A stretch of 64,000 nucleotides of DNA from a virus: the IMG/VR virus record IMGVR_UViG_3300036939_000082, positions 1-64,000 of that record. One strand, written 5' to 3'. Made by a program: the position numbers and the translations under genes. Under the pieces are notes generated by a model. It worked only from the letters and a program-made list of their open reading frames with translations, ran no database searches and was not told the DNA's origin. Below, piece by piece: positions 28,657-47,574 of this stretch (the stretch's first letter is position 1; every line of letters begins with the position of its first letter).

Positions 28657-29475
28657 ATGGAACCAATAGATGAAGTTTTAATCAAACCCGTACCTGAAGA
28701 ACAAATAAATTATTTTGATCTTCCACAAGAAGGGCTTTTTATTGACGAAAAACGACCTCTTTACAAAGGACGACGCACTTGGGACGAGTGTCTTATAAGG
28801 AATACCCTGAAAACCCCGTGACTTCAGTCCGGGGATGAAAGAGGGGTTGCAGGATTTATCCTGCCTGCTCTCTTTACCCCAGTCCTGAATCTAAAATCTC
28901 ATCTTTTCAATTCAAAAAACTTTTGTGAAAAGTTTTGGACACGACGGGACAGTATGGTAAACTGAAACAGTCAGGGTTAAACTCCCTTGCTATCGTGAAA
29001 CGGGACATGAGACACACTTTTAGGCATAAACCGGGGGACAAAGTGCGACGAAAACACTATAAACAGTCGAAACCGAAAATGTAGGTTTCAATCCAGCAAA
29101 CACAATTTTTTTACGCTCGAATTGTTAAGTAGGGTAGGGCATACCCGAACTCTAGGGAAATATCCTAGTATGCTTTTGGAGATAGATCCGCTGGGATGTT
29201 TCTGAGTTAGGCTCATCAATTGGTGGTATCCCCACGGTTGAAAGGTTTAAGAATTGCCGCAAGGACAGAACATTTTAAGGTCAGTCGCTGAATTAAGAAT
29301 CCCCTCGGCTTTCAGCCATGGGAGTGTCAAAATGGGTACTGTTCAATGCGATACTGGTAACACATTTTTTCTCGTCTATGGACTTGGTGAGTATCATTTG
29401 AAAAATGTCGATCAAGTATCTTTTGCGGTAACTTACCCAGCAGGGTATTTCCAAATAAATGTTTGCTATAAATGA
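28657..29475 (+). pseudogene. About 94-aa hypothetical gene interrupted by an IS200/IS605 remnant
   Basis: Removing 28797-29330 restores the frame: ...WDECLI|MGTVQCDTGN...CYK*. Confidence 0.75.
28797..29330 (+). mobile_element. Non-autonomous IS200/IS605 derivative (534 bp), target TTAT
   Basis: Left-end hairpin CCCCGtgacttcagtcCGGGG; tnpB-end-like GTAGGGTAGGGCATACCCGAA; right end AGAATCCCCTCGGCTTTCAGCCATGGGAGTGTCAA; no target duplication. Confidence 0.85.
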
Positions 29476-36796: not shown

Positions 36797-38188
36797 CTAC
36801 CAGAGAATTGGCTCCTCCTCCTCGTATTTTTCGACAATTACGGCTTTCGCAGGTTCAACTGCGGAGGCTTTTTCAATTTCAGCAATATTAGCAGCCAAGA
36901 TTTCTTCTGCCTTGGTCGGTCTGCCAAATCTTTTATTGAGGAGCGATCGCGCCCTTTCTCTCGCCGCCAAACTTTCTGGGGTCGGTGCATACGGGTCTGC
37001 CGCTTCCTCTTCCTCCGTCGCTGGATCTAAATCTGTACCCGTCGTCGGTTCGAGTTCCGGAAGTGAAGTCTCAACGCAAGCGATCGCGTAGGTCGGTAAA
37101 TTGTTGGCGATCGCCCGTTCCTTCGGTACTCCCAGCTCAACCTGTCGCGTCGCATCTTCGATCGCCCGCTCCAATCCCAATTTCACAGCATTCGCCACCG
37201 CCGCCACGACTGGCAGTCTCCGCAACTGCCCCGCTGCATTTTTGGCCGCCTCTGTTGTCGTCGCGCCGACTTTGTTAATGCAATCCTGGGCGATCGCCTC
37301 AGCTACTACCTGTTCCGGCACTCCCCGCAGCCTGAAGCCCGGGGGAACCAAGCGACTGCCCAATTCCTCACCGGAAATAAACTCTTCCCACAATAGGGCC
37401 ACACTAGCTTCTGGAACTTTCGCCTTAGACTCGCGCATGACCCAGTTGGCATATCCCTCGGGGGAATCGATGTCTACCCGCTGGTAGCAGTATTCCAAAA
37501 GTCTCTCAAAAAATAATTGTCGCTCAACCGGACTCGACCGCACGGAACACCGATCTTTTTCCAAAAATTCATTTTTTTTGAGAAGTTCGGCAACCACCTT
37601 TGCTTCCAGCAGACTGTCTTCAAGCAACCTCTTCTCTTCGTTCTCTTTTTCTATTTCTAAAAATTTATCAATAGTTCCGCCCGCTTCTCCGGGAGAGATT
37701 TCTTGAAAAACTTTTTTTGAAGATGTATCTTGATATGATTTGCGCTCAGTCGCGAGATCGATAGGATCATTTTCGGGTGATCGATTTGACGGTTTTGCGC
37801 AAATCGAGAGCGGCGCACCTTTCAGCAATTCAGCCAGCTTTTCGTAGCTGACTGCGTAGTATTTACATTGGTCAAAATAATTAGCCCTCAGTTGGCGGAC
37901 GACAATCAAGCCCAGCTTCTCAAGTCGAGCAAATATGCGGCGGAGTTTGTGGGCGCTCAGCCAGGGGAAGTTTCCCAGCCAGTCTACCTGCTTGCCGTGA
38001 GACTTGTTTAGTTTGCGCGGGTTGGTGCAGAGGATCGGGTTGCGAATCATTTTTATGCCGTCGGGAGCGATCGTCCCGCTCATCGCTGGGTTCTCGACGC
38101 ACCACTGAAGTTTGTTGAAGATTACTGCTTCCTCAAGTCCGATAGCGGCCGCTAGGTCTGGGCTGAAAAATCCTAATTCTTGAGACAT
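36797..38188 (-). CDS. Replication initiator / replisome organiser (N-terminal winged helix)
   Basis: AAAIGLEEAVIF.KL.W ... W...FPWLS...LRR....LEKLGLI ... D..KYY.V.YE.L pattern of phage/plasmid Rep proteins. Confidence 0.7.
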   Translation of the reverse strand: MSQELGFFSPDLAAAIGLEEAVIFNKLQWCVENPAMSGTIAPDGIKMIRNPILCTNPRKLNKSHGKQVDWLGNFPWLSAHKLRRIFARLEKLGLIVVRQLRANYFDQCKYYAVSYEKLAELLKGAPLSICAKPSNRSPENDPIDLATERKSYQDTSSKKVFQEISPGEAGGTIDKFLEIEKENEEKRLLEDSLLEAKVVAELLKKNEFLEKDRCSVRSSPVERQLFFERLLEYCYQRVDIDSPEGYANWVMRESKAKVPEASVALLWEEFISGEELGSRLVPPGFRLRGVPEQVVAEAIAQDCINKVGATTTEAAKNAAGQLRRLPVVAAVANAVKLGLERAIEDATRQVELGVPKERAIANNLPTYAIACVETSLPELEPTTGTDLDPATEEEEAADPYAPTPESLAARERARSLLNKRFGRPTKAEEILAANIAEIEKASAVEPAKAVIVEKYEEEEPILW

Positions 38189-39683: not shown

Positions 39684-40406
39684 TTGAATGTCTTAAAAAC
39701 ACAAATACGAACAAAAATAATGAACTCATCTAAATTTACCCGTCCTTCTTTGGCTGAATATTCTCAAGGCTATTATCAGGCAGCCCCAGTCGAGTCAATC
39801 TGCAATAATTCGTACAAATTGATTGAGCAGTGGGAAATCCCTGTTTTAGAATCTGGGGAAATCCTTGTATACGGGGTGCGTCTCGTTCCCTCTCAAAAAG
39901 CTAAAATTAAAGTCTATTTTGGCTCAAGATCTAAGCGAGCAGTTGTTTGGTCTGAAGACCAACCATATAAAATGATGGGCGTTAGCTACGATTGCTATGG
40001 ACTTAAATTCAAAGAACAAGGGGATACTGTTTCGGATGAAACTATTGAAAGATACCTTGTTAATAATACAAGTCACGGCGTGTTGTACTTATCTTTTACT
40101 GGCGTTTCAATAAATTGCACTGACGAAAACTGGAAATTGCATCTTTCTAAGCCAGAGAAATATCTGAGCTGGACAGGTTCGGAACGTTTTTGTTCATCGG
40201 AAACCAATCAAATTTTTCAAAAAATAGCAAAACAAGTAGGCTGCACGGTTCCCAGAAGAGTTTTTGTACAATGCAACTGGCAATTGGAAGCTAACAACAA
40301 ACAAAACATTACGCCACGAAAAACTTCTTATCTAAAAATTTGCAGAGATTTGTCAATAGTTGAGTACAAATCTGCTGACGATGTTATGGTTTCTATCCAT
40401 TTTTGA
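39684..40406 (+). CDS. Hypothetical protein
   Basis: 240-aa ORF. Confidence 0.55.
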   Translation: MNVLKTQIRTKIMNSSKFTRPSLAEYSQGYYQAAPVESICNNSYKLIEQWEIPVLESGEILVYGVRLVPSQKAKIKVYFGSRSKRAVVWSEDQPYKMMGVSYDCYGLKFKEQGDTVSDETIERYLVNNTSHGVLYLSFTGVSINCTDENWKLHLSKPEKYLSWTGSERFCSSETNQIFQKIAKQVGCTVPRRVFVQCNWQLEANNKQNITPRKTSYLKICRDLSIVEYKSADDVMVSIHF

Positions 40407-40516
40407 GGATTTGGTGAAAACAAAATTTAAATATTACTAATTTTCAAAATCCAAGAGCCAGCAATTAATGCCCGATCGCCCACAGTCTCAAATTTCACCT
40501 AATTGAACGTGACCCA

Positions 40517-40954
40517 TTGAACGCAAACAACTTAAACCCTATGCCAGTAAAAGGATTTCGACAACTCCGCGTTCCGACGCGCACTTTTGAAATAGAGTTC
40601 AAACACCGTCCGCCGGATGACGCAACGGGCGATCGGGAAGTGTTAATTAAGACCGAGCAAATACAAGTTCCGGATGTTGGTAATCGTGAATGGGAGAAAC
40701 GGTGGGCAATGATGACCGTATGGAATACTTTTTCCAATCCGGAAGCGAAAGAACTTGGAATTAACCAGGCTTTCATCTTTTCTAAGGATTTTCGGGAATT
40801 GGTTTTTCGGATTGAACTCAATCCTTTCACGGACGAAGAAGCACACAAGTTGGATGTGCCGGCGCAGCAAGAATACGATCAATGGCTGGCGGCAGTGCGG
40901 AAACAGTTTAAGAAGCGCTATGGCGTCGAACTCGACGATTGGATGGGTACTTGA
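40517..40954 (+). CDS. Hypothetical phage protein
   Basis: 145-aa GC-richer ORF. Confidence 0.6.
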   Translation: MNANNLNPMPVKGFRQLRVPTRTFEIEFKHRPPDDATGDREVLIKTEQIQVPDVGNREWEKRWAMMTVWNTFSNPEAKELGINQAFIFSKDFRELVFRIELNPFTDEEAHKLDVPAQQEYDQWLAAVRKQFKKRYGVELDDWMGT

Positions 40955-40986
40955 TGTTGCGGGCGATCGTCCGCTGCATTGCTGAC

Positions 40987-41388
40987 CAAAAAACTGGGTA
41001 CAAGCCCGTCCTTCTAGAACGGCTTTAGTTAAGAGTTATGAATAACCAAAGATATGCTTTGTCAGACTGCTACAGTTAGGGATGTTGCAGCAGCGCAAGT
41101 AGTTCTAATTAGAGGACTTGCAGCCGTGGGACACACGGTGAAGATGCTTGGGGAGGGTAAATTCATTGGAATCCCTACAAACCAAGAAGCTTAGTTTGGT
41201 ATTGTCAACTAGCCTATTATTTCCATTAAAAGATCAAACAGCAAGCACTTGTGTGAAAAAGCTCACAACCCAGTATGGTGTAATTAATTGCAGTCGTAGG
41301 GCATACGGTAAAGAAGCTTTTGGAGGGTTAACTCAGTAGAGTCCCTATGAAGAAAGAATCCCCACGCCTTTAGGCTGGGGAGTGTCAA
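40987..41388 (+). mobile_element. Non-autonomous IS200/IS605 derivative (402 bp) with tnpB 3' remnant and duplicated right-end scaffold
   Basis: Left end CAAAAAACTGGGTACAAGCCCGTCCTTCTAGAACGGCTTT after TGAC; remnant peptide RDVAAAQVVLIRGLAAVGHTVK; right end AGAATCCCCACGCCTTTAGGCTGGGGAGTGTCAA. Confidence 0.85.
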
Positions 41389-41618
41389 GCAATCGAATAC
41401 GGAGGTACTGCGAGCCCGGGTTCTTTTAGTTTGTTCGTTCTTGGGTTGGGGCGATCGGTGCTACAATATTAACTGGCAGACAAGCGACAAGCCAACCGAA
41501 AGCAAAACCCGCAGATTGAGAGAGACTGCGGGTTTTGTTTTTCTTGAGGGGCGATTGTTGGGTTTTGGCTTTTACAAAAGAATCGATTTTATTTTTGTGG
41601 ATTCAATCGACCTTTTTG

Positions 41619-42161
41619 CTAGCGATCGCCTAGAAAATCCTCAAATATTGCACCCCGTTTAATCAGATATTGCTTCATCGATTTAGAAATGACGGAGTTT
41701 GAGTTGAATCGGGCTTTCTCAACATTAGTCTGACTTAAGTCAGCACCGCTCAGGTCAGCACCGCTCAAGTCAGCACCGCTCAGGTCAGCACCGCTCAGGT
41801 CAGCACCGCTCAAGTCAGCACCGCTCAGGTCAGCACCGCTCAGGTTAGCACCGCTCAGGTCGGCATCACTCAGATCGACATCACTCAAGTTTCGATCTGT
41901 GATTCCCTGGGTAACAAGTTCTCGTACTAGATGCCACTTGTTGTTGATTTCGTTGTTATTGTCATCCTTTGAGTGTTCACTCAAGATTTGAACACTTGCA
42001 ATAGGAAAACCGCTTATTTCTTCTAATTCTCCTGACTTGATGCGAGATACAAGGCGTTTGACATATTCTTGAGAACCTTCTACCGTTAATACGGTACTGT
42101 GTGCAGGATTCTTATTTTGGTTGTCAACAATTCGATCGCCCGGAACTAATTTCTTTTTCAT
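41619..42161 (-). CDS. Pentapeptide repeat protein
   Basis: (SGADL)n encoded by near-perfect 15-bp tandem repeats at about 41735-41870. Confidence 0.9.
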   Translation of the reverse strand: MKKKLVPGDRIVDNQNKNPAHSTVLTVEGSQEYVKRLVSRIKSGELEEISGFPIASVQILSEHSKDDNNNEINNKWHLVRELVTQGITDRNLSDVDLSDADLSGANLSGADLSGADLSGADLSGADLSGADLSGADLSGADLSQTNVEKARFNSNSVISKSMKQYLIKRGAIFEDFLGDR

Positions 42162-42204
42162 CTTTGTTTAAAGTGTGGTTTTGTTTTTTTTGAGGGACGA
42201 TCGG

Positions 42205-44270: not shown

Positions 44271-45299
44271 ATGAACACTCAACTGACACTTGCACTCGAC
44301 ATATTCCCCGACGCCAGTCTAACTTTAGAGCAAAAAATCGAATGGAGTTTAAAAGTTTTTGACAGTTTAGACGAAGAGAAAGAGTACCGACTTGCTTTTA
44401 GTGGAGGTAAAGACAGCCACGTATTACTCGGAATATACTTAAAGTGGCGCGAGTCTCGTCAAAAAAACTTGAAGTTAAATGTGGTCTTTTCTGATACGTT
44501 GCTAGAAAGTCAGCAGCTTTACAGTCTGATCGAATTGACAGAGAAGACTTGCAAGGCAAAAGAAATCAACTTTATTCGAGTTAAACCCTTGTTAGAACAC
44601 AATTTTTGGGTAATTCTGTTTGGACTGGGTTATCCTGTACCGAATCACAGGGTTAGATGGTGTACAAGCCGTTTAAAAATCGATCCAATGGAAAAGACCC
44701 CGGGCATCGGCATTACGGGTTCTCATTTTGGAGAGAGTACAAAAAGAGACAACAGACTAAAAAAATGCGGTTCCAACGAATGCGGTATCAATGAATTATC
44801 TAATACTGTTGAACCTTTAGCAATCTGGCGAAACTGCGATATCTGGGATTGGATAATACTGTACTCTGACAGTATTATCTATAACGGAGTAAGCAGTCAA
44901 TTATTGTCCACATACAACATAGCAGAAGATAAAAATGGGAGCTTGAGAATGGGTTGTTTTATGTGTCCCGTGATAGCTCAGAGTACAACAGTTAAATTGG
45001 TAAACGATGGCATCGTGTCTCCAATTACCCTCAAAATTCGGGAGATTCTTGAAATTTTGCGAAAAAAACCCAGGATTTTATCGCAAAGGACTAAAAAGAA
45101 TGGGGCAATTTTAGTGGACGCTAGAATCGAAGTTTGGGAAAAAATGAAACCTTTTTTTCCTGTACTTTTAGAAAACAACTGGATTCAGCCCGAGGTAATA
45201 CACTTGGTTGAAGAAATGTTGTCTAAGAGAACTTACCCCCCAACCTACAAACAAGATTGGATAAAAGAACAGGAACAACTTCTCAAAAGTTTAGACTAG
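44271..45299 (+). CDS. PAPS-reductase-family (DndC-like) PP-loop protein
   Basis: FSGGKDS, RWCTSRLKI.P, RMGCFMCP. Confidence 0.85.
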   Translation: MNTQLTLALDIFPDASLTLEQKIEWSLKVFDSLDEEKEYRLAFSGGKDSHVLLGIYLKWRESRQKNLKLNVVFSDTLLESQQLYSLIELTEKTCKAKEINFIRVKPLLEHNFWVILFGLGYPVPNHRVRWCTSRLKIDPMEKTPGIGITGSHFGESTKRDNRLKKCGSNECGINELSNTVEPLAIWRNCDIWDWIILYSDSIIYNGVSSQLLSTYNIAEDKNGSLRMGCFMCPVIAQSTTVKLVNDGIVSPITLKIREILEILRKKPRILSQRTKKNGAILVDARIEVWEKMKPFFPVLLENNWIQPEVIHLVEEMLSKRTYPPTYKQDWIKEQEQLLKSLD

Positions 45300-47288: not shown

Positions 47289-47574
47289 TTGCTTGTAACT
47301 CTCCCCCGTGCTAGAATGAATTATAAAATTTTCAGGAAAGCCCATAAGACGGTAACATTCCTTCAGTGTCAGCTTTCTCACTACATCTTGCTCGGGAATG
47401 TAGATAAAAAACCTACCCGATGTTTCTTGCGAAGGAATTGTGGGATGTACTCCATCTACCGAATAAATGCGATTAGGTTGTCTGTGAACTCTCGATAAAT
47501 GTATCGAATTGTTTACCGGGCAAGCCGACTGACTGAACCAAGAATCCTCGTACCTTTAGGTCGAAGAGTGTCAA
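47289..47574 (+). ncRNA. Orphan IS200/IS605 right end (omegaRNA-like) with upstream promoter
   Basis: TTGCTT-N17-TAGAAT (47289-47317); hairpins CTACAT/ATGTAG and TCGATA/TATCGA; end AGAATCCTCGTACCTTTAGGTCGAAGAGTGTCAA; no left end or tnpB seen. Confidence 0.6.

Follow-up and report, generated by a model that had tools for sequence, protein, structure and literature searches.

The segment at positions 40987-41388 of the 64,000-nt stretch of viral DNA analysed here (the window, which comprises the first 64 kb of a 188,942-bp IMG/VR 'provirus' record, G000) is best read as a 402-bp protein-less, PATE/MITE-like deletion derivative of a tnpB-only IS200/IS605-family element; we assign a probability of about 0.8 to this reading, in which the composite 3′ end of the element arose once. 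Both ends are kept within a few hundred base pairs that have no protein-coding capacity, the features that define PATEs and miniature elements. The parent element type is common in Microcoleus and other filamentous cyanobacteria. Two similar units in the segment, which a sequence-only reading had taken for a multi-guide cassette, appear to be the right ends (omegaRNA-type scaffolds) of two related TnpB elements lying head to tail.

The element starts directly 3′ of a TAM-like TGAC (40983-40986; this and all element features below are on the + strand), the window reading TGAC and then CAAAAAACTGGG. Related full-length copies are conserved from CAAGAAAYTGGG on and their flanks upstream of (T/C)TGAC diverge; TGAC precedes the left end in the window and in 11 of 12 related copies. 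The left end (LE, 40987-41079), which also aligns to the LEs of Microcoleus copies, has a subterminal hairpin with one mismatch at 41006-41022 and reaches five codons into tnpB, the ATG start having become CTG at 41067-41069. At about 41079/41080, on a TAGG microhomology, a deletion junction joins the LE to a 3′-terminal tnpB remnant (41080-41188, about residues 380-410). The remnant, ~35-46 codons, is no longer open; it has one stop and 83% protein identity to residues 367-413 of P0001, the TnpB of a full copy described below. A TnpB gene with RuvC (D/E/D) and zinc-ribbon domains is absent from the window element. Unit 1 (41118-41188) lies inside the remnant stretch and supplies stems 1-3 of the scaffold. 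Next come the degenerate tail of right end 1 (RE1, 41189-41208), which ends in TTGTCAA and has lost the terminal hairpin, and an inter-unit spacer (41209-41287; 75 nt plus a shared TTAA), whose first 16-20 nt had been proposed as 'guide 1'. Unit 2 (41288-41388) is a complete scaffold of the right-end/omegaRNA type, 101 nt long and from a second sublineage; its 5′ side is truncated at TTGCAG, its last letters are GTGTCAA, and it forms the outer boundary of the mobile unit. The following 20 nt (41389-41408, GCAATCGAATACGGAGG...), placed by analogy with the ISDra2 reRNA (PMC8612924), would act as the guide of a unit-2 omegaRNA. No direct repeat (target-site duplication) around the element was found by the repeat search.

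The element sits between a + strand ORF with no function assigned (40517-40954) and a convergent pentapeptide-repeat gene on the minus strand (41619-42161). A hairpin with a 16-bp stem and T/A runs on either side (41499-41541; no strand assigned; inverted repeat I1, 94% complementary) lies 3′ of both the element and the pentapeptide-repeat gene and is likely a bidirectional terminator. Rfam searches of the whole window gave no family at gathering score, and at E values up to 10 only terminator-type matches on 41499-41541; a promoter/terminator scan of 40800-41700 returned no site. A TRADD-like domain (Pfam E 9e-7) lies at the N terminus of the pentapeptide-repeat protein. Its gene includes a run of 15-nt tandem repeats of the GTCAGCACCGCTCAG type at about 41745-41860, and many Microcoleus genomes have homologues ~80% identical, frequently with several copies side by side. 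By PHROGs, the neighbours (36797-38188, minus strand, and 44271-45299, plus strand, among them) include replication-initiator/DnaD-like and PAPS-reductase-like (DndC-like) proteins, which fits a phage or other mobile-element context. When 39700-42200 was compared with 79 Microcoleus genomes, only the pentapeptide-repeat gene and IS scaffolds matched and no empty site was found; the upstream genes have no counterpart in these genomes, so the insertion had no empty site for comparison.

The two units share one structured scaffold. In the repeat search, 41118-41188 and 41288-41358 align without gaps, 170 nt apart, at 54 of 71 positions (76%); the sequence-only reading had noted the same pair shifted by 2 nt (41120-41190 and 41290-41360, 53/71). 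An nhmmer profile of 420 positions, made from 69 related IS 3′ ends, matches unit 1 (41069-41191, profile positions 271-393, E 3e-36) and unit 2 (41288-41388, profile positions 320-420, E 1e-27) far beyond chance. The family scaffold occupies the last ~101 nt and has four stems: stem 1 (CCGTAgggcaTACGG, the same bases encoding AVGHT), a longer-range stem (CTTgc...gcAAG), an inner stem (GAGGG...TCCCT) and a terminal hairpin (TCCCCnnGCC...GGCnnGGGG). Over 67 distinct sequences 92% of cells are paired, and double-sided changes number 171 versus 57 in shuffles, a value reached by 0 of 500 shuffles; the covariation score is 0.322, versus at most 0.111 with the partners slid. Single-sequence folds, with z-scores of only -1.0 to -2.8, are by themselves not informative. 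Across the 69 loci, the structured right end overlaps the 3′ part of tnpB and extends up to the transposon boundary, where homology ends at TGTCAA. A structured right end of this kind doubles as a DNA hairpin recognised by TnpA and as the omegaRNA scaffold of TnpB.

Much of what had been noticed from the letters alone holds up against this family model. The profile matches and the four-stem covariation bear out the description of the units as omegaRNA-like scaffolds. The stem-preserving differences reported between them (CCGTG/CACGG in unit 1 versus TCGTA/TACGG in unit 2, and inner TTC/GAA versus CTC/GAG) are real and fall on base pairs that covary across the family; an extra covarying stem (stem 2) reads CTTGG...CCAAG in unit 1 versus CTTTT...GAAAG in unit 2, both variants being widespread in the family. 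As described, TGTCAA ends the units at 41208 and 41388 with different sequences after it, and the right-end hairpin is confined to the second unit: TCCCCacGCC...GGCtGGGG occurs in the window only at 41358-41381. Unit 2 has all four covarying stems. Unit 1 is without the guide-proximal terminal hairpin, which covaries in all 67 family members.

A full copy of the element, about 1.49 kb long, lies in the same record 127 kb from the window locus (G000 167176-168665), and in it both units recur in the same order (G000 168378-168489, then 168557-168665). Its tnpB is an intact ORF of 413 aa (P0001, G000 167260-168501), of which unit 1 forms the last ~120 nt. P0001 has OrfB_IS605, Cas12f1-like TNB and HTH_OrfB_IS605 domains and matches ISDra2 TnpB structures (E 2.5e-34), the three blocks GIDVG, VEDLN and DRD all being preserved; its weak structure matches include PDB 9jfo 'LaTranC'. 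Aligned to TnpB-type nucleases, it keeps the RuvC D/E/D motifs and is therefore a TnpB, not a TldR; for P0001 the suggestion of a TldR partner thus finds no support, and no guide target was found. The statement that the locus is without TnpB is correct locally and fails for the record, which holds this intact cognate tnpB with the same two units. The 189-kb record contains three TnpB elements and is phage-like, in agreement with the idea of a phage-borne locus with TnpB available in trans. No Y1 (HUH) TnpA was detected as a PF01797 match in the 189-kb record; one may still be encoded by the host.

The other two TnpB paralogues (G000 101904-102803 and 178135-178797, both minus strand) are 35-38% identical to P0001, and each has its own right end. 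Further right-end terminal hairpins ending in TGTCAA (profile ~377-420) occur in the window at 47534-47574 and 29288-29330 (both +) and elsewhere in the record at G000 105909-105946 and 178015-178058 (both -); the hairpin at 178 kb belongs to the TnpB paralogue, and the one at 47.5 kb has no adjoining tnpB.

Comparison of the two copies defines the mobile unit. Homology starts at the LE and stops exactly after the outer GTGTCAA, so the unit is bounded by the LE and the second right end and measures 402 bp in the window and ~1.49 kb in the sibling. The stretch 41080-41188 is about 95-96% identical in DNA to G000 168378-168489, and unit 2 about 92-92.5% identical to G000 168560-168665 (start also given as 168557). 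The window LE matches the LE and tnpB start of the full copy (G000 167176-167273) in 74 of 98 columns; because this identity (about 75%) is far below that of unit 1 (95%) and unit 2 (92.5%), the copies are mosaics. Three oddities are common to both: the odd RE1 tail, the TTAA-TTGCAG junction and an outer boundary at the second right end (RE2). The full copy has a 48-nt tail that folds as TCCTTA[30-nt loop]TAAGGA followed by TTGTCAA, and 19 of the 20 nt of the window tail can be read from it in the same order; three deletions separate the two tails and have removed the 5′ arm of the terminal hairpin in the window. That both copies share these oddities argues that the composite arose once.

One stretch does not follow this pattern. 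Between the TTGTCAA of RE1, where homology breaks exactly, and TTAA-TTGCAG the copies are unrelated, with 75 nt in the window and 21-25 nt in the sibling; the local alignment of spacer to spacer is no better than that of 76% of shuffles. Between the copies, DNA thus appears to have been replaced or deleted exactly at the RE1 cleavage site. The likeliest causes are that TnpA still recognised RE1 and acted on it aberrantly, or that copies recombined with one another. The unrelated spacers count against single-composite descent, which does not predict them and has to invoke one such additional event, an indel or replacement where RE1 is cleaved or else a recombination of the copies. A derivation of the spacer from degenerate tnpB coding sequence was rejected: profile envelopes start only 12-20 nt before TTGCAG, and the alignment against shuffles gave no support.

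We propose that a ~1.1-kb deletion between short TAGG-containing repeats took out nearly all of tnpB and left the LE, the last ~35 tnpB codons and the 3′ end. This 3′ end would be composite, unit 1 representing the element's own right end (RE1, ending TTGTCAA) and unit 2 one that belongs to a related second sublineage and is truncated at its 5′ side (RE2, ending GTGTCAA). Everything from LE to RE2 would then have spread together. The compensatory changes would be the differences between two sublineages of one structured right end.

Relatives of the element support two sublineages. A search with the TnpB collected 80 related loci with 60-89% TnpB identity, mostly from Microcoleus and also from Nostoc, Scytonema, Moorena and further genera. 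In each of the 80, units 1 and 2 both fall on a single common site, made up of the 3′ end of tnpB and the right end; homology among related copies ends at (G/A/T)TGTCAA and the flanks diverge after it. Compared over the 73 nt that both share, unit 1 comes closest to the single-scaffold elements L068, L063 and L060 (90-95%) and unit 2 to L014, L029 and L039 (85-92%), whereas the units are only 75-78% alike. The compensatory changes are therefore inherited family covariation. The search for the parent IS of each unit, suggested by the sequence-only reading, thus yields two sublineages, and the finding that it had named as telling against itself is what we observe: each unit matches ordinary IS copies, single-scaffold copies of separate sublineages, more closely than it matches the other unit. 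Its fallback, a nested-insertion relic, comes close to our preferred reading, a deleted copy of a composite IS.

These comparisons also bear on another origin, in which one element's right end was duplicated in tandem on the spot and the two halves then diverged over a long time, with no sublineages juxtaposed. The units are indeed collinear and homologous over 71+ nt, as a duplication would leave them. However, each is 10-20 points closer to single-scaffold copies of other genera or species than to its neighbour, and they belong to different stem 2 covariation classes (CTTGG/CCAAG versus CTTTT/GAAAG) that are both widespread. Moreover, when the record's two copies are compared, divergence within units is only 4-8%, against 22-25% from one unit to the other. 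The identity ranking already points towards separate clades for units 1 and 2, and we regard duplication in place as improbable, albeit the best-surviving of the alternatives.

Minis consisting of an LE plus a scaffold, 190-490 bp long, are common in Microcoleus genomes, and ordinary scaffold matches number >200, in 67 of 79 Microcoleus genomes. No second copy of the window mini was found; the record has one. Solo right ends truncated at the 5′ side are frequent in Microcoleus, with breaks at profile positions 239, 291, 300-302, 307, 316, 333, 344 and 356. Solo right ends in L123 (G045:C285), L124 and L127, as well as the spacer of the 168-kb copy, share a GTAGTT start at profile 300-302 that follows an internal ...CTCAA resembling the right-end cleavage motif, and in L123 the truncated right end comes directly after a TAM-like GGTGAC. 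The recurrent GTAGTT starts suggest aberrant TnpA excision at an internal pseudo-right-end site. The loci L122 (G016:C144) and L133 (G075:C268) are orthologous, with both flanks and the terminal scaffold in common; upstream of the shared scaffold L122 has a different TnpB relic ending TTGTCAA plus 36 nt, and L133 has an LE joined to the scaffold. Judged by these sequences, the two loci would represent an IS 'graveyard' with turnover.

The interpretation with the larger consequences is a functional two-guide cassette, or proto-array, in which one transcript would yield two omegaRNAs with guides at 41209-41228 and 41389-41408 that direct a TnpB supplied in trans to two DNA sites. We consider it a little less probable still than duplication in place. 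The tandem scaffolds on one strand, each ending in TGTCAA, are what such a cassette would look like, three TnpB genes in the record could serve it, and nowhere but between RE1 and unit 2 do the copies differ completely, the full copy having 21-25 nt there, about guide length. Against this, unit 1 in the window is without the guide-proximal hairpin, the window spacer at 75 nt is not of guide length, the units come from two sublineages and are not one duplicated repeat, and 40800-41700 has no promoter-like site. Nor is the layout conserved. Tandem right ends occur in 0 of the 80 related loci, and a right end, short spacer and scaffold starting TTGCAG in 1 of 79 Microcoleus genomes (L122, with a 36-nt spacer), an analogous arrangement that speaks for the cassette by its existence and against it by its rarity. 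The junction pattern TTAATTGCAGNCGTAGGGCATACGG matched 0 viral contigs and, with 2 mismatches, one place in the 79 genomes; the gapped pattern TGTCAA-N-scaffold had 0 matches in the viral and metagenome scans of the first round. A degenerate version of the pattern matched one metagenome site, L166; this is a tnpB with an internal deletion, and its TGTCAA lies in coding sequence. A CRISPR-like array would have near-identical repeats, regular spacing and spacers of similar length; here the units are 75-78% alike and the spacers measure 75 versus 21-25 nt.

Targets for the putative guides were also sought. Guide 1 (41209-41228) has no match with ≤2 mismatches in G000 and no TAM-flanked target in the 189-kb record or the 79 Microcoleus genomes, so the TAM-adjacent match that the sequence-only reading had suggested looking for did not appear; together with the missing hairpin and the unconserved layout, this leaves the multi-guide claim unsupported. 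The guide 2 flank (41389-41408) has no second match with ≤2 mismatches in G000 and likewise no TAM-flanked target in the record, and the spacer has no homologue in the 79 Microcoleus genomes beyond chance-level 16-mers. One exact 16-mer, AGCCTATTATTTCCAT (window 41211-41226, beginning 2 nt into the guide), occurs once each in >30 Microcoleus genomes at an E of about 0.5. It lies in a conserved ~48-codon ORF (MAEIAKNQLKSDSVMKTGK...AAYYFHIIE, L157-L163), probably for a small membrane protein, with no TGAC; given the missing TAM and the chance-level E, we judged the match a coincidence.

RNA data touch the family and not the locus. The stretch itself is present in one biocrust DNA sequencing run, which probably represents the source sample. 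In one unrelated biocrust metatranscriptome (assembled contigs), relatives of the scaffolds with 3-14 differences are present and 41192-41265 is uncovered, which bears neither way on expression of the locus. Two apparent 'joints' in sequencing runs proved to be relatives or the sibling copy placed on the two units, not excision events. A 127-nt RNA contig from a related single-scaffold element, lying over window 41078-41188, starts near TTGCAG with a word depth of ~133; contigs over the upstream tnpB part have depths of ~7-9. This gives a weak hint that the mature RNA of the family begins near TTGCAG, from contigs that cannot prove RNA ends or levels.

The spacer difference is the one feature that keeps a two-guide reading alive, mainly for the sibling, with its intact TnpB, complete RE1 stem and guide-length spacer. 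The full copy (G000 167176-168665) would then be a natural two-guide TnpB locus, with a nuclease gene, a complete RE1 scaffold, a 21-25-nt spacer and a complete 101-nt scaffold. Its single transcript would give two omegaRNAs, one of them with a guide carried along by the element itself; the window copy would be a gene-less satellite, and the replacement of sequence between TTGTCAA and the second scaffold would amount to spacer turnover. We hold this to be about as improbable as the cassette in the window.

Least probable of all are two independent insertions of the unit-1 element beside existing solo unit-2 relics, for instance by reuse of a TAM left intact: the unrelated spacers, the TTGAC just before ATAGTT... 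in the full-copy spacer, the L123 solo right end placed directly after GGTGAC and the differently filled orthologous 'graveyard' sites (L122 versus L133) would suit them, but both copies have the same non-canonical TTAA-TTGCAG start of unit 2 and the same outer GTGTCAA as the end of homology, no solo relic of the unit-2 type with that junction turned up elsewhere in the 79 genomes or the viral contigs, and two hits beside the same rare relic are unlikely.

If the window locus derives by deletion from a composite element, it could still contribute an RNA. It has no promoter of its own, so transcription would probably come by read-through from the ORF ending at 40954 and stop before the hairpin at 41499-41541. 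Only unit 2 would then form a complete scaffold in the window, with unit 1 a fossil. By analogy with characterised TnpB systems, unit 2 and its 3′ flank GCAATCGAATACGG... could load TnpB made in trans, for example from the copy at 167-168 kb. The loaded TnpB would target and cut the donor joint TGAC/GCAATCG... after excision and so help to restore the element, the usual part played by TnpB in homing and retention. Movement would need a Y1 TnpA from the host, since none is present in the record.

We therefore describe the locus as an ordinary transposon relic, not a demonstrated two-guide array. It documents the decay of a TnpB element into a gene-less, scaffold-bearing mini inside a large cyanophage-like element, and illustrates that related right ends can end up arranged head to tail, as a pair that then moves as one unit. 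A by-product is a family covariation model (four stems, about 101 nt, TAM-like TGAC) for annotating cyanobacterial omegaRNAs. One proposal holds that Cas12 arrays arose from repeated right ends. Tandem right ends are raw material for models of that origin, and their frequency, here one case among 79 Microcoleus genomes besides the two copies in the record, is therefore useful background. The locus would matter much more if the inner scaffold made a working guide, and the sibling, were its two-guide reading true, would exemplify in a living system the path by which repeated right ends lead from TnpB towards Cas12 arrays.

With the transposon-to-CRISPR intermediates (TranC), the system shares two guide-scaffold units on one strand, beside a TnpB-family nuclease in the full copy; it differs in having no regular repeats, constant spacer length, conservation among relatives or target, its units being two diverged IS ends. 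Altae-Tran and colleagues reportedly described stand-alone (effector-less) omegaRNA loci of OMEGA systems in 2021; a scaffold without an adjacent nuclease gene is common to those loci and the window element, whose LE and tnpB remnant mark it in contrast as a deleted transposon copy. In the ISDra2 system the guide RNA consists of the scaffold and ~16 nt of flank, and the target is the TAM plus the donor joint (Karvelis et al. 2021, PMC8612924). The ISDra2 TnpB/reRNA complex (PDB 8h1j, 8exa) has in common with our family a homologous TnpB, a scaffold over the tnpB 3′ end and a stop at the transposon boundary. Its TAM is TTGAT, whereas ours looks like TGAC; the conserved structured part here is about 101 nt, and the element belongs to the tnpB-only kind, tnpA being absent from the record. 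By this analogy, the guide here would be the 16-20-nt flank and its target again the TAM plus the donor joint. PATE elements are protein-less and encode omegaRNAs for use in trans (Meers et al. 2023, PMC10055086). The window element differs from them by its two tandem right-end scaffolds from two sublineages and by the single mini copy seen; it shares with them an LE with a subterminal hairpin, a right end/omegaRNA scaffold and the lack of a protein gene, with TnpB and TnpA to be supplied by other copies.
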